DNA of 64,000 nucleotides from Dictyostelium discoideum (GCA_000004695.1 CM000153.2:4192001-4256000), one strand, 5' to 3'. Numbered from the stretch's first letter, positions 22,477-52,413 are shown. The notes: generated by a model not told the origin, from the sequence alone. A program made the numbers and translations.

Positions 22477-23805
22477 TTATTTAATTGTTTTAATTGGAAT
22501 TTTTTTTGATGCTGAAATATTATCAATTATTTCTCTATTATTAAAATTTAATAATGACAATGATTTTAAAGAATTATTTGAAGAAATCATTTGAGAGAAT
22601 GTTTCAGTAAATTTTGAAGTTTCAGATAACTGTTGTTTTAATTCCTTGCAACATTTATTTTTACAAGCTGTACCAATTGATAGTGCAGATAAATGTTTAT
22701 GATTAATAAGCATATCTCTAACTCTTTCAAAGTAGAAATAAAAATCTGGTTTCTCCCATGAGAAAATAGGACGTTGTTTTGATAATTCATTCTCTGTAAA
22801 CTTGTAGATCATTGAGTTTTGGCACATTTGGAATGAAAGAGATTGTAATTTGGGTAAAGATTTTAAAATGTAATAAATCTCTTTAATCGATAAAACATCT
22901 TGAAGGGATACCTTTGAAATTGATAATTTTTCCATGAATGAGAAAACTTTGGTTCCTGGTGTATAATCAACGAGTTTCTTATATTTAAAATGTGGATCTG
23001 GAGTTTCACCATCATCACCACCACCTCCATGCTGTCTTGTTGATGGATGATGACTTGGTGATGGAACAATTGATAATTTATTTGGATTAAAATACTTTAT
23101 ATAATCCATAATTGCAAATGAACTTTCATCATCACAACATGAGTCAATTTTCAATTTATTAACTTTAAATTGGCAATTAGTTGCATGAGGTATCTCTGGA
23201 AAACCGAATATATTACAATAAAGACTAATATGTAAATCAATTTTAATTGTATCATTAATTTGCGATGATGGACTTGAAGATGATGACGAAGATGGTGATG
23301 ATTGTGGTGGTGGAAGTGGTGATGATTGTGATGATGATTTGAAAACTTTATTTAAAAATTCCAAATTAAATGTTTGTTCAGTTCTAATTAATTCTTTTTG
23401 TGAAAAATATCTACAAACAACAATCTTTTCCAAATTTTTTAATTGATTTATTTTATTTTTTAATCTAAATTGAAATTGATCATCATTTTCATATTGATTC
23501 AACTTTAGTATTGAGATATTATCTTTTTTTAGAATTGATAATTCACTCTCTTTTTCATTAAATGTTAAACCATGGAAATCTTTTGAAACAATTAAATTAT
23601 TTGATAAAGTTTTGAACCAACTTTTACAAACCAAGGCAAGTGTTAAAATAAAATTAGTTTCTTTAACTTTAAAATCTTTTTTAATATTTTCTATGCAACA
23701 TAATTTATTTTTTTGATTTTTTTTATTTATATGATTACATATAATTTTAATTAAATATTTTTGAAGATAAATATTAATTGGATATTTATTTTCAATATTA
23801 TCCAT
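22477..23805 (-). CDS. F-box-like domain protein (442 aa), close paralogue of 51076..52413
   Basis: The N-terminus has the F-box hallmark ..ILTLALVCKSWFKTLSNNL (the VCKxW core). The N-terminus (YLQKYLIKIICNHINKKN) and an internal segment (EIYYILKSLPKLQSLSFQMCQNSMIYKFTENELSKQRP) align with YLLKYIIRIACNYINK and DLYYLLKNSPNIKRLSFYICFDNLIYQFTNKKTLP of the gene at 51076. Confidence 0.7.
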   Translation of the reverse strand: MDNIENKYPINIYLQKYLIKIICNHINKKNQKNKLCCIENIKKDFKVKETNFILTLALVCKSWFKTLSNNLIVSKDFHGLTFNEKESELSILKKDNISILKLNQYENDDQFQFRLKNKINQLKNLEKIVVCRYFSQKELIRTEQTFNLEFLNKVFKSSSQSSPLPPPQSSPSSSSSSSPSSQINDTIKIDLHISLYCNIFGFPEIPHATNCQFKVNKLKIDSCCDDESSFAIMDYIKYFNPNKLSIVPSPSHHPSTRQHGGGGDDGETPDPHFKYKKLVDYTPGTKVFSFMEKLSISKVSLQDVLSIKEIYYILKSLPKLQSLSFQMCQNSMIYKFTENELSKQRPIFSWEKPDFYFYFERVRDMLINHKHLSALSIGTACKNKCCKELKQQLSETSKFTETFSQMISSNNSLKSLSLLNFNNREIIDNISASKKIPIKTIK

Positions 23806-25037
23806 TTTATTTTATTTTTTTTTTTTTTTTTTTTTTTTTTTTTTTCAAATTTATTTTATTTTATTTATAATATTTTAATTATTTTATTTTTATTATATTT
23901 TATTATATTTTATTTTATTTTATTTTATTTATACTTTTTTTTATATTATAATATTAATAAAGTTTTTTTTTTTTTATTTTTTTTTTAAAATTTTTTTTTT
24001 TTAATTATTATTTTTTAATTAATAGGTATTCAAATACACTTTTTTATTTATTATTAATACTATTAATTTTTTTTTTTTTTTTTTTATTGGTTTAAATACT
24101 TTTTTAAAAAATTAAAAAAAAAAAAAATGGAAAAAAAGAAAATAGATTAACTAGATCTTTGAAAAAAAAAAATAAAAATAAAAATAAAAAAAATAAATAA
24201 AATTAAAAAAAAAAAAATAAAACCTGTAATCTGTAGATGTAATAAAAATTAAATTTCAGTTAAAATAAATTTAATTTAAATAAATACAAAAAATGAAATG
24301 ACCCCCCAACTATTCAAAGATTATTATAAAATACGGAATACAAAATACAAAATAAAAAAAAATAAAAAAAAATAAAAATAAAAATAAAAAAAAATAAAAA
24401 AATGAACACAACACTGAATTAATTAAAAAAAATAAAAAATGTAAAAAAAATAAAAAAACTAAGCCGATTGTAATAAATACCTATATTAAATATCCCATAG
24501 TGCCCATCAATAAAATAAAAAGATTAAAAATTTCCTTTTATATTAAATGAATGTTGGTTGTGAAACCTCCTTTTGATTTTCATTATTCAAACCGTTTTTA
24601 AAAATCCTTTTTTTAGAAATTTTTTTTTTTTCCTATTTCCTTTTTTTTTTTTTTTTTTTTTTTTACCCAAAAATAGTATCTTCTTTTTATGAACATTACT
24701 TTTTTTACTGAAGTTTATTTTGTTGCAAGATAAAGTTCTGAAAAAAAAAAATTTCAAAAAATAATGAAAAAAATTTCAAAAAATATAAAATATTGAGATA
24801 AAAATAGAAATAAAAATAAAAAAGAATCAAAAATATTTAATCATTCATTTTTTTTTGTTTCCAAGAAATTTTAATTTATTTATTTAAATAAGTCATAAAA
24901 ATTAATTATTTTTTTTTTTATTTTTTTTTTTTTATTTTTTTTTTTTTTGAATTTTTTTTTTTTTTTTAAATTTTTTTTATTTTTACTTTTTATTATTTTT
25001 CGAAATTATCATTATCAAGCACATCAACAAATACACA

Positions 25038-25552
25038 ATGGAAAATACCAAAGAAGAACCAGGAGTTAACGGTGAAGCTCCAGTAAAGGATGAACACATC
25101 AATCTTAAAGTTAAAAACCAAGTGAGTAATCTCTCTCAAATGAAATAAAACTGAAAGAAATAAATATTAATAAAAAAATAATAATAATAATAAAGTAAAA
25201 ATAAAATAAAACTAATTTTTTAAAAAAATAATAAACTCTTTAGGGCGGTGGTGAAGTATTTTTCAAAATCAAGAGATCAACACCTTTAAAGAAATTAATG
25301 GAAGGTTTGTATATTCTTAATAATTCAAATTTTAAGAATAAATAAATTTTTTTTTTTTTTTCTTTCATACTTATTAACATATTCTATTTTTTACAAATAG
25401 CATATTGTCAAAGACAAGGTCTTAACTATGCAAGTTGTCGTTTCTTATTTGATGGTGTTCGTGTCAAAGAAGACGCCACACCAAATCAATTAGGTATGGA
25501 GAATGAAGATGTTTTAGATTGTGCATTAATGCAAACTGGTGGTTCTTTCTAA
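25038..25552 (+). CDS. sumo: SUMO (small ubiquitin-like modifier), join(25038..25121,25244..25304,25401..25552)
   Basis: The spliced product is MENTKEEPGVNGEAPVKDEHINLKVKNQ|GGGEVFFKIKRSTPLKKLMEA|YCQRQGLNYASCRFLFDGVRVKEDATPNQLGMENEDVLDCALMQTGGSF. This is a canonical SUMO fold sequence with the di-Gly processing site QTGG followed by a short tail. Donors are GTGAGT and GTTTGT; acceptors are TTTAG and AAATAG. Confidence 0.9.
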
Positions 25553-50818: not shown

Positions 50819-50841
50819 TTGTGTGTGTGTGTGTGTGTGTA
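50819..50841. repeat. (TG)11 dinucleotide microsatellite
   Basis: tgtgtgtgtgtgtgtgtgtgtatgg in AT-rich intergenic DNA. Confidence 0.9.
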
Positions 50842-51075
50842 TGGTGAATTTGATTAAAAAAAATAATTATATAATTTTTTTTTTTTTTTTTAAAATTAAT
50901 TTTTTTTTTTTTTTTTTAAAAATAATCATTTTTTAATAATTAAAAAAACACATTACCTTTATTATTAATTTTTTTTAAAATAAAAATACATATGTATATA
51001 TATAATTTTTATTATATATTTTTAAATTACTATTAAAAAAAAAAAAAAAAAAAAAAAAAAAAAAAAAAAAAAAAA

Positions 51076-52413
51076 ATGAATTTACCAATTTATTTATTAA
51101 AATATATAATTAGAATTGCTTGTAATTATATAAATAAAATTAGCAATGATTATTCATTTAAAAAGAATGAAATTTGTCAATTAAAAAAATCAATTTCTTT
51201 AACTTGTTGGACATTTTTTAAAACAATGTCATTAAATTTATCAGTTTTAATAATTTGTAATCAAACAAATGGAAATCAAGAAATTAAAAAAGTTTCAAGA
51301 ATTTTGGATAGTAGTAATGAAAAACAAAAATATCAATTATTAAAAAGGGAGAATATAACTTCAATTGGTTTTATTTATCATTATATATTTAATAATTTCA
51401 CAGATTTGGCAAGTTTAAATCAAGAGATACAATTATTTGAAAATTTAAATAAAATAGTTATTGATAGATGTGATTTAAATGTAATTAAACAAATTGAATT
51501 TGGCAATATTAAAATTCAAGATTATTATTTTAGTAATCATTCAACTAATATTCCATTTAGTTTAGCAACAAATGTAAAAGAGATTGCAAATTTATCAATT
51601 GCACCAAATAATTTATCAAATTTAATAATTGACTTTTTCATGAAAGGTGATATTAAAGTTAAAAGAATTTTAGAAATTGATTATCACAGTCCATGTCAAA
51701 TTCCATTTGAAGAGTTATTACCATCAAAAGCTCTAACATGTGTAAAAAATTATGATCTTTTAATTTTAACAATTAAAGATTTATATTACCTATTAAAAAA
51801 TTCACCAAATATAAAACGTTTATCATTTTATATTTGTTTTGATAATTTAATTTATCAATTTACAAATAAAAAAACATTACCTTGTAAATGTAGTGGTGTA
51901 AATGATGATGCTGATGGTGGCACAAATATTAATGATCAATATTTTGATCAAACTTGGGAGAATAATAATAGTGATGATGAAGTTATTGATCAATTTAAAT
52001 TTTATTGGGATTTTATTTCAAATGAAATTAAAAATCATAAAAAATTATCATTTTTAAAGATTGTTAATAAATGTTTAATTAATTATGACTCTGGTAGTAA
52101 TTATCAGAAGGAATCATCATTTCCTGAAGAATTTATTGAAAAATTTTCATATCCATTTAAAATGAATAATTCAATTAAAACTGTAGTGTTTAATGGGTTT
52201 CATACACCTGAAATTTATGAAAAAATAATTATCAATGGAAATAAATCAATCTTTAACTATCATTCTGAATTTTTGGATAATACTTTTCAAAAAAAGATTG
52301 AATACAAAGAATCAATTGAAAATCTCTTATCTAAAAATCATCATATAAAATATTTTTCATTAAAAGATAATAATAATTATTTATTAAATTATTCTAAAAA
52401 AATAATAAAATAA
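51076..52413 (+). CDS. F-box-like domain protein (445 aa), close paralogue of 22477..23805
   Basis: See the alignment blocks under 22477..23805. An F-box-like segment is present (..ISLTCWTFFKTMSLNL). Confidence 0.7.
   Translation: MNLPIYLLKYIIRIACNYINKISNDYSFKKNEICQLKKSISLTCWTFFKTMSLNLSVLIICNQTNGNQEIKKVSRILDSSNEKQKYQLLKRENITSIGFIYHYIFNNFTDLASLNQEIQLFENLNKIVIDRCDLNVIKQIEFGNIKIQDYYFSNHSTNIPFSLATNVKEIANLSIAPNNLSNLIIDFFMKGDIKVKRILEIDYHSPCQIPFEELLPSKALTCVKNYDLLILTIKDLYYLLKNSPNIKRLSFYICFDNLIYQFTNKKTLPCKCSGVNDDADGGTNINDQYFDQTWENNNSDDEVIDQFKFYWDFISNEIKNHKKLSFLKIVNKCLINYDSGSNYQKESSFPEEFIEKFSYPFKMNNSIKTVVFNGFHTPEIYEKIIINGNKSIFNYHSEFLDNTFQKKIEYKESIENLLSKNHHIKYFSLKDNNNYLLNYSKKIIK

Follow-up and report, generated by a model that had tools for sequence, protein, structure and literature searches.

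FBXL-type receptors with solved Skp1 complexes include rice D3/MAX2, COI1, TIR1, SKP2, FBXL2/3/17, and Dia2, and human KDM2A and KDM2B combine a JmjC domain with an F-box and LRRs. In Dictyostelium, Skp1 itself is under the control of O2-dependent prolyl hydroxylation. A Dictyostelium Skp1 interactome study (Boland et al. 2022, J Biol Chem, PMC9485057) describes JcdI and JcdH as F-box proteins with a JmjC domain, and JcdI was recovered with Skp1, as were the 'LRR+' proteins DDB_G0273009, DDB_G0273173, and DDB_G0278029, in which an N-terminal module with the consensus LPxYxQKxIIxxL – loop – LxLALV(S/C)xxWFxTLSNNL precedes an LRR-type body. An anti-Skp1 co-immunoprecipitation from slugs recovered DDB_G0286243, placed in class 'pm' (F-box predicted in a Skp1 interactor), for which the substrate-receptor column in the table of Fig. 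S3 is blank (PMC9485057).

The window analyzed here is a stretch of 64,000 nucleotides from Dictyostelium discoideum, in which four genes, A–D, span less than 30 kb. Gene A (DDB_G0286227; 22477..23805, minus strand; 442 aa) encodes a divergent F-box-like N terminus followed by a predicted LRR solenoid; gene B (39345..41615, plus strand; 756 aa) an F-box-like N terminus with a putative, irregular LRR-like body carrying poly-Asn inserts; gene C, which is DDB_G0286243 (47634..50645, plus strand; 1003 aa), a leader, an F-box-like module, a linker, and a 2OG-Fe(II)-oxygenase-like domain; and gene D (DDB_G0286245; 51076..52413, plus strand; 445 aa) a predicted F-box-like and LRR protein of the family of A. 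The product of D matches XP_637805/Q54M26 exactly, with the database label 'uncharacterized protein'. All four ORFs were recovered at precisely the coordinates and strands given by the first-pass annotation, with the core strings it had quoted (ALVCKSWFKTL, SLVCKLWAEKV, SLVCKSWNLFI, and SLTCWTFFKTM for A–D, respectively), and conserved gene types (G-alpha, SWEET, alpha/beta-hydrolase, pyridine-nucleotide oxidoreductase, and TPR) lie between them. It appears probable that A–D are divergent F-box-like proteins of three unrelated families, with a module that docks onto Skp1 and a role as SCF substrate receptors, and that they were not brought together by recent local duplication.

The module has a common layout, comprised of a first helix of the L(P/S)xxIxxKIL type, a family-specific loop of ~9–30 residues, and helices 2 and 3 around L-x-L-V-C-K-x-W. 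An F-box was taken to be three helices within ~40–50 residues, with L-P opening helix 1 and L-x-L-V-[CS]-[KR]-x-W at the helix 2/3 junction. The module of A (23587..23781, minus strand; aa 9–73) consists of helix 1 PINIYLQKYLIKIICNHI, a loop of ~12–25 aa, and helices 2–3 NFILTLALVCKSWFKTLSNN, and that of B (39351..39563, plus strand; aa 3–73) of KLSNLIIKRILQFC, a loop of ~30 aa, and VDVIVKLSLVCKLWAEKVIPYLDYPFY. The C module (48006..48143, plus strand; aa 125–170) consists of VLSNILTIKILKYS, a 9-residue loop (IKLSLLDNT in PMC9485057), and HEQFTETLSLVCKSWNLFIIPKL, a parsing that agrees with the published Fig. S3. The putative D module (51079..51246, plus strand; aa 2–57) consists of NLPIYLLKYIIRIACNYI, a loop, and LKKSISLTCWTFFKTMSLNLSV. 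The statement that all four proteins begin with such a segment fails for C, where the module follows a low-complexity leader of ~115 aa. In each protein the module is followed by a domain predicted to interact with proteins or bind substrates.

Searches of the whole proteins A–D with Pfam PF00646 and PF12937 gave no F-box match even at E ≤ 10. The isolated N terminus of A scored 12.8 bits with PF12937 (E = 0.1, below the cut-off of 24.3), the isolated N termini of B, C, and D gave no Pfam F-box match, and 0/29 members of the A/D family matched a Pfam F-box at E ≤ 0.1. Read strictly, this outcome (a significant match in 0 of the 4 proteins) goes against the first-pass annotation, which had made its F-box reading depend on such a match. 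An HMM was also built from 48 canonical Dictyostelium F-boxes, with its alignment, from the machine-extracted and error-containing text of a PDF supplement, and was run on all ORF segments of 50 aa or longer from the six frames of the window, 310 in total; A, B, and C were the best three of the 310, with E-values of 1.9e-4, 9e-3, and 2.2e-2, followed by the next-ranked segment at 0.98. The matching domain is of 12.9 bits in A (aa 50–72) and 10.0 bits in B (aa 46–61). A regular expression for the core found only genes A–D and one antisense artefact across the window.

Profile–profile alignment (hhalign) against the canonical F-box gave P-values of 1.1e-4 for A, 1.4e-5 for B, 3.3e-5 for C, and 4.9e-5 for the 26-sequence N terminus of the A/D family, with modest probabilities of 56–80%. 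The A/D-family N terminus aligns LP on LP and H3 on H3, with a 21-aa insertion between them, and the C module covers positions 3–48 of the 49-column profile. Between modules, B and C are related with a probability of 95.5% (E = 1.5e-8, across 74 columns), A and C with 81% (E = 1.2e-5), and A and B with 40% (E = 3e-4). Upstream of the core, a helix-1 PSSM scored 11.6 bits in D and 10.3 bits in C, values reached by 0/714 null windows, and 6.3 bits in B (empirical p = 0.02); in A it was not significant alone (p = 0.15). Sequence searches of the PDB produced no significant match, the best for the A/D-family N-terminal profile being the F-box of yeast Dia2 at only E = 0.46. Taken together, the evidence for a three-helix F-box with an inserted H1–H2 loop is moderate, not decisive. 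The proposal that the four proteins are candidate SCF substrate adaptors is reasonably well supported, not by Pfam but by the Dictyostelium F-box HMM, the profile–profile alignments, the published co-immunoprecipitation of C and of proteins with closely matching modules, and UniRef, where A, DDB_G0286281, DDB_G0280379, and several relatives from D. purpureum go under the name 'F-box domain-containing protein'.

The AlphaFold model of A (pLDDT 74.7, pTM 0.70) contains helices at residues 12–32, 44–57, and 61–70, a low-confidence loop at 33–43, and beta/alpha repeats thereafter, with the break between H2 and H3 at L-V-C, as in known F-boxes; as modelled, A shows three helices and an LRR fold, and an LRR fold is likewise predicted for D. 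The helix-3 core of D (SLTCWTFF) is degenerate and gave no match with the F-box HMM, but the helix-3 part resembles that of the Skp1 interactor DDB_G0278029 (LISLVCWSYHQTLSNYLY). The candidate module of D is assigned mainly by homology to the A family. A and D are homologous over their full length and outside low-complexity regions, as had been claimed (BLASTP E = 7e-13, 22% identity; SEG-masked E = 8e-10). Family membership was defined by a HMMER match that runs the full length of the protein and takes in the C-terminal LYYxLKxxPNLxxLSxxICFxxLIYxL block; such a match was found for A and D; B does not match (hhalign probability 15%), and C shows no likeness past the module. The family, to which A, D, DDB_G0286281, DDB_G0280379, and their relatives belong (28 cluster representatives), is confined to the genus Dictyostelium.

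The nearest described counterparts of A and D are the 'LRR+' Skp1 interactors, with which they share both the N-terminal consensus and the LRR-type body. The A/D profile recovers P0021, P0025, P0026, and P0035, whose N termini are the same as those of the 'LRR+' proteins, at E = 4e-14 to 4.5e-5, the two sets being equated by reading sequence fragments rather than by exact look-up. The modules of the co-immunoprecipitated DDB_G0273009/0273173 (LPLYIQKYIILKIL...LMLTLALVSQDWFKTLSNNLT) and DDB_G0278029 closely match those of A and D, that of the co-immunoprecipitated DDB_G0270322 (CKFWMEMVMPYLP) closely matches B, and that of DDB_G0278939 matches C (PMC9485057). Unlike the 'LRR+' proteins, A and D are missing from the alignment of Fig. 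S3 and from the searchable interactome text, and their Skp1 binding is putative; D differs further in its degenerate helix 3 (C-W-T-F-F). The searchable part of the published Skp1 interactome lists contains none of A, B, and D (PMC9485057). Compared with FBXL-type receptors, the A/D proteins have no Pfam F-box or LRR match, a sequence identity of 9–15%, an H1–H2 insertion of ~12–30 residues, irregular repeats, and a distribution limited to Dictyostelium.

Orthologues of B were found in D. discoideum strains, D. citrinum, and D. purpureum (47% identity), and the module is kept in them as far as D. purpureum. No Pfam domains were detected in these orthologues, and the body of B is predicted to be LRR-like from the periodicity of its sequence and from the LRR label that PMC9485057 gives to similar proteins.

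In C, the module is followed by a low-complexity linker of poly-Gln/Asn/Glu (48357..49163, plus strand; aa 242–510), which varies in length and composition between orthologues, and by the 2OG-Fe(II)-oxygenase-like double-stranded beta-helix domain (49437..49913, plus strand; aa 602–760), which carries an inserted coiled-coil-like segment of ~45 aa. The linker also yields spurious overlapping ORFs in other frames. Neither the whole protein nor its C-terminal half matches Pfam, including PF13640; the oxygenase fold of C is instead suggested by homology to the paralogue P0011 (27% identity over 93% of the query, E = 2.7e-41), which matches PF13640 at 34.7 bits (cut-off 27) and whose residues 269–367 align with the oxygenase-like region. 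P0011 has the motif line PHID ... CIHKV ... GVRIVL (H-I-D ... H ... R); in C and in its orthologues from D. citrinum and D. dimigraforme the corresponding line reads LQIQPD ... CV(A/V)QTL ... G(Y/C)RIIL. The iron-binding His is absent at both ligand positions in C and these orthologues, the Arg is kept, and the Asp is possibly kept, depending on register. Because both iron-binding His residues have been lost, the domain of C probably serves for binding and not for catalysis. Like JcdI/JcdH and KDM2A/KDM2B, C and its paralogues join an F-box-like module to a double-stranded beta-helix domain of 2OG-oxygenase type; they differ in that this domain is of the prolyl-4-hydroxylase-like PF13640 type (only the paralogue exceeding the Pfam threshold) rather than JmjC, and in that C has no iron-binding His pair and has a coiled-coil insertion.

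The first-pass annotation regarded the genes as four paralogues of a lineage-specific expansion. Such a local burst, in which an F-box family expanded in place and its members later diverged and were interleaved by other genes, would account for four F-box-like genes in under 30 kb, for the full-length homology of A and D, for the restriction of their family to one genus, for further members (ACTFIR_011348, 011380, 011617, 011662, and 010036) on the same chromosome-sized contig, and for the clear relation between the B and C modules. The word paralogues proves too strong, however, as A/D, B, and C have no significant likeness outside the module of ~50–70 aa (BLASTP between them, E ≥ 0.009, motif only), their architectures beyond it are unrelated, and the B family stands apart from the A/D-family profile (probability 15%). 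Moreover, the nearest relative of A is P0015 (E = 6e-19) and those of D are P0018, P0015, and P0017 (E ~1e-26 to 1e-27), all outscoring the direct A–D comparison (only ~1e-9 to 1e-13); with nearer copies of each elsewhere, A and D are products of old duplications. In D. purpureum the arrangement B – hydrolase – oxidoreductase is kept, but the ±10 kb around the B orthologue contain no homologue of A, C, or D. Given the three architectures, the location of the nearest relatives of A and D elsewhere, and the presence of B alone in the ±10 kb covered in D. purpureum, the cluster is no duplication array, and a local burst is distinctly unlikely; expansion holds only in the weak sense that the A/D family is confined to Dictyostelium.

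A different objection is that the module is not an F-box but a dictyostelid-specific helical cap that shares L-V-C-K-x-W, in which case the proteins would not be SCF subunits and the co-immunoprecipitation of their relatives would be indirect. The failure of Pfam in the four genes and 29 family members, the PDB sequence searches, and the long insertion between helices 1 and 2 all agree with such a cap, structure searches fail to tell F-box/LRR from plain LRR proteins, and Boland et al. describe a number of their own F-box predictions as speculative (PMC9485057). We nevertheless regard it as unlikely, since the profile matches to canonical Dictyostelium F-boxes span the LP/helix-1 and helix-3 parts in the correct order, the model of A places three helices just before the first LRR strand, the arrangement of F-box/LRR proteins, and, according to PMC9485057, C, like several relatives of A, D, and B, was recovered with Skp1 by two antibodies, and H1–H2 loops also occur in the yeast F-boxes Ctf13, Amn1, Ylr352w, and Ydr306c. 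It is harder still to credit that the motif is a compositional coincidence of an AT-rich genome with an Ile/Leu/Lys/Asn-rich proteome, which would make the cluster meaningless. The identical core is just 6–8 residues, BLASTP between families gives E = 0.009–0.2, and the many windows scanned in the first pass bring a look-elsewhere effect; but the F-box HMM, run on 310 ORF segments that share this composition, scores only genes of the cluster, helix-1 matches fall at the expected position upstream of the core, the modules are kept in orthologues (for B down to D. purpureum), and the likeness of the B and C modules extends over 74 columns.

Under the favored reading of A–D as divergent F-box-like proteins, the N-terminal module would most likely dock onto Skp1, directly in A, B, and D as well, and each protein would provide an SCF (Skp1/cullin-1/F-box) ubiquitin ligase with a substrate receptor, substrates being chosen by the downstream part: the LRR solenoid in A and D, the LRR-like body in B, and the 2OG-oxygenase-like beta-helix in C. 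All four would thus function in ubiquitin ligation, and the genes are probably ubiquitin-ligase adaptors; their proximity within 30 kb is probably a chance placement of members of a large, dispersed, fast-evolving superfamily. As a long shot, C and its paralogues may constitute a family not annotated as such, which joins a Skp1-associated F-box to a prolyl-4-hydroxylase-type 2OG domain, C being a dead copy that kept the substrate-binding fold and acts as an SCF receptor or decoy for (un)hydroxylated proline targets, a speculation for which the evidence consists of how the domains are combined, the missing pair of iron-binding His residues, and the published Skp1 co-immunoprecipitation. If true, the pseudo-hydroxylase C could, again speculatively, tie oxygen sensing to substrate choice. 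The finding as a whole is an ordinary one: F-box-like proteins of this kind have already been described in Dictyostelium discoideum, and A–D add members to them.

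The four genes, designated A to D, were found at exactly the positions and with exactly the motif strings reported in the first-pass annotation, A at 22477..23805(-), B at 39345..41615(+), C at 47634..50645(+), and D at 51076..52413(+), encoding 442, 756, 1003, and 445 residues, respectively. A and D are exact matches to the D. discoideum AX4 genes DDB_G0286227 (UniRef Q54M37, named 'F-box domain-containing protein') and DDB_G0286245 (UniRef Q54M26, named 'uncharacterized protein'), and C was identified as DDB_G0286243 from its sequence in a published alignment (PMC9485057). Each of the four seems to consist of a single exon, given that the orthologues begin and end at the same residues. 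An F-box-like segment had been placed at the very start of each protein, which does not hold for C, where the motif lies at residues 125–170 behind a low-complexity leader. The window has a G+C content of ~20%, and the genes are, as proposed, interleaved with conserved gene types (a G-alpha exon, a SWEET transporter, an alpha/beta-hydrolase, a pyridine-nucleotide oxidoreductase, and a TPR protein), with Mot1-like SNF2, RRM/R3H, WD40, E1 dehydrogenase, and DnaJ/TPR genes flanking the region.

Several further ORFs were observed in the window. The 458-residue ORF at 26645..28021(+), with a local G+C of 0.34 compared with ~0.20, encodes a Gly/Ser-rich protein of approximately four tandem units of ~110 residues (RRFGHHGGGVAGSIANAASSI(S/A)SVANSVSSMTNSVSSLANSVSSLAGS...) with no Pfam match. 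Two ORFs with poly-Asn/Gln tracts, at 53484..54608(-) (374 residues) and 55436..57202(+) (588 residues), have neither a Pfam match nor an F-box-like motif. Within 48303..49338, on both strands, ORFs of 311 and 340 residues (poly-Leu/Ile and poly-Asn/Lys) occupy other frames and the opposite strand of C; these are spurious products of the CAA/AAT repeats coding for the poly-Gln/Asn linker of C.

No Pfam F-box model matched the whole A, B, C, or D proteins, even at E ≤ 10, contrary to what the F-box assignment had led one to expect. Of the isolated N termini, only that of A gave a match (PF12937, 12.8 bits, below the cut-off of 24.3), confined to helices 2–3, and none of 29 members of the family containing A and D matched the Pfam F-box models at E ≤ 0.1. 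Pfam LRR models gave no significant match in the four whole proteins, the isolated N termini, or the 29 family members. Sequence searches of the PDB with the A N terminus, a 24-sequence A/D N-terminal profile, and N- and C-terminal profiles of the C family likewise returned nothing significant, the best matches being the yeast Dia2 F-box region (E 0.46, with the A/D N-terminal profile) and the HEXIM1 coiled coil (E 0.64). The Pfam F-box models miss the whole class because a loop separates helices 1 and 2.

An F-box HMM was built from 48 canonical Dictyostelium entries of the annotated and BLAST-derived classes, leaving out those predicted in interactors (PMC9485057; the canonical alignment was taken from machine-read PDF text). 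Applied to 310 six-frame ORF segments of ≥ 50 residues in the window, it ranked A, B, and C as the top three (E 1.9e-4, 9e-3, and 2.2e-2, respectively), with the next segment at 0.98. Profile-profile comparison with the canonical alignment gave P values of 1.1e-4 (A), 1.4e-5 (B), and 3.3e-5 (C), where the alignment of C extends over the full F-box, contains a short loop, and follows the parsing of PMC9485057. The N terminus of the A/D family (26 sequences) aligned with P 4.9e-5, pairing LP with LP and helix 3 with helix 3 across a 21-residue insertion. Helix 1 was sought with a 14-column matrix over the 60 residues preceding the L-x-L-V-C-K-x-W core, using 714 windows from other genes in the window as the null. 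D and C scored 11.6 and 10.3 bits, a level reached by 0 of the 714, with B at 6.3 bits (p 0.02) and A at 2.2 bits (p 0.15). These sequence scores are moderate, and are supportive of an F-box rather than decisive.

The model of A obtained with AlphaFold from the 29-sequence family alignment (pLDDT 74.7, pTM 0.70) consists of helices at residues 12–32, 44–57, and 61–70, with a low-confidence loop at 33–43, beyond which strands and helices alternate. Helices 2 and 3 are separated at L-V-C, which is also where they part in solved F-boxes (Skp2, TIR1). The LRR body of A is thus well supported. With a 6-sequence alignment the pLDDT was 48.5 and there was no Foldseek match at E ≤ 1e-3.

The association of such modules with Skp1 comes from the Skp1 interactome of Dictyostelium, in which an F-box-like alignment of 83 sequences was published that explicitly allows loops between helices 1 and 2, with yeast precedents in Ctf13, Amn1, Ylr352w, and Ydr306c (PMC9485057). 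C is listed in its supplement as class 'pm', an F-box predicted in a Skp1 interactor, and was recovered from slugs by co-IP with anti-Skp1 (UOK77). The modules of co-immunoprecipitated DDB_G0273009 and DDB_G0273173 (LPLYIQKYIILKIL - loop - LMLTLALVSQDWFKTLSNNLT) are nearly identical to that of A, DDB_G0278029 (LISLVCWSYHQTLSNYLY) has the unusual C-W in common with D, DDB_G0270322 (CKFWMEMVMPYLP) and DDB_G0280575 (LSLVCKLWAKC) resemble B, and DDB_G0278939 (ILIIKILDYR ... IVCKSWNLFTVNKLNLGKY) resembles C (PMC9485057). In the searchable text of that supplement only C was found, and not A, B, or D; searches by gene ID found no mention in the main texts of the literature. Taken together, these data suggest that A, B, C, and D are most likely divergent F-box-like SCF adaptor candidates, an assignment that is highly probable for C, likely for A and D, and somewhat favored for B.

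The four genes had also been interpreted as paralogues arising by local expansion. For A and D, the proposed likeness along the whole length was borne out outside low-complexity regions (BLASTP E 7e-13, 22% identity) and persisted with SEG masking (E 8e-10), and so is not confined to low-complexity sequence. The other pairs are alike in the short core only, with best BLASTP E values of 0.009 (A-C), 0.022 (B-C), 0.089 (A-B), 0.18 (C-D), and 3.3 (B-D). At the profile level, module against module, B and C matched with a probability of 95.5% (E 1.5e-8 over 74 columns), A and C with 81%, and A and B with 40%. A word-indexed homologue search with A, B, and C returned near orthologues only, and missed the A-D pair too. 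Placing B in the A/D family was rejected, as only a generic repeat-like likeness was found (probability 15%). A recent inverted duplication giving A and D was likewise rejected, since neither is the nearest relative of the other: among cluster representatives from the searches, P0015 is nearest to A (E 6e-19, compared with only ~1e-9 for A-D), and P0018, P0015, and P0017 are nearest to D (E ~1e-26 to 1e-27). The four genes thus represent three families whose common part is only a module of ~50–70 residues, and the local expansion of four paralogues is not upheld.

A profile of A plus D, searched with HMMER against 1.84 billion cluster representatives, retrieved only 28 at E ≤ 1e-3, and all 20 of those looked up belong to the genus Dictyostelium (discoideum, citrinum, dimigraforme, and purpureum). 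Several are named 'F-box domain-containing protein' in UniRef, and the family includes DDB_G0286281, DDB_G0280379, and representatives with N termini matching co-immunoprecipitated proteins (PMC9485057). Several members are found on one chromosome-sized contig, hundreds of genes apart. Besides A, this contig carries at least four others, DDB_G0286281 (P0042) and additional members (ACTFIR_011380, 011617, 011662, and 010036), one of these at a distance of ~30 locus tags from A. The chromosome of A may thus hold more of the family than expected, without a tandem array.

Orthologues of B reach as far as D. purpureum (47% identity), where the order B, hydrolase, oxidoreductase is kept. In D. citrinum the orthologues of B and C lie on one contig, three locus tags apart, and in D. 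dimigraforme those of A and C share a contig. A tblastn search within ±10 kb of the D. purpureum B orthologue found no A, C, or D homologue; the four-gene neighborhood is therefore not an ancient unit, at least for C. The D. discoideum genome measures ~34 Mb. The ~90 listed F-box candidates comprise 52 from BLASTp and 38 in interactors (PMC9485057), giving a rough expectation of ~0.1 per 30 kb, against which four would be unusual; A, B, and D are absent from that list, and therefore the true number, and with it the expectation, is larger than this. The clustering per se has no demonstrated biological meaning. In D. purpureum, a gene for a FNIP-repeat protein was observed ~7 kb upstream of the orthologue of B (sequence L001, 1207..2721(+)); FNIP/LRR proteins are another class listed among Dictyostelium Skp1 interactors.

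One less routine point of the analysis is a degenerate prolyl-hydroxylase-like domain in C, whose substrate-receptor domain was left blank in the Skp1-interactome table (PMC9485057). A paralogue of C that shares its F-box-like module, the D. citrinum representative P0011 (E 2.7e-41, 27% identity across 93% of the query), matches PF13640, the 2OG-Fe(II) oxygenase superfamily, with 34.7 bits, above the cut-off of 27. By homology to P0011, the corresponding domain, in the C-terminal half of C, spans residues 602–760 (49437..49913, + strand). P0011 carries the H-x-D ... H ... R signature in the alignment, in which C and its orthologues have no His at either iron-ligand position, keep the Arg, and contain a coiled-coil-like insertion of ~45 residues. 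C is thus an F-box-like protein with a prolyl-hydroxylase-type domain that is probably inactive.

The loop-bearing, Pfam-invisible F-box-like class of D. discoideum is already known, with C on the published list; the new elements are the placement of B and D in this class, a delimited A/D family restricted to the genus, and the observation that C carries a degenerate 2OG-oxygenase-like domain. In annotation terms, B and D extend the catalogue of candidate D. discoideum F-box proteins, and A and D join a defined F-box-like/LRR family confined to the genus, several members of which match published Skp1 interactors. As Pfam misses this class, Pfam-based F-box counts for social amoebae are therefore too low.
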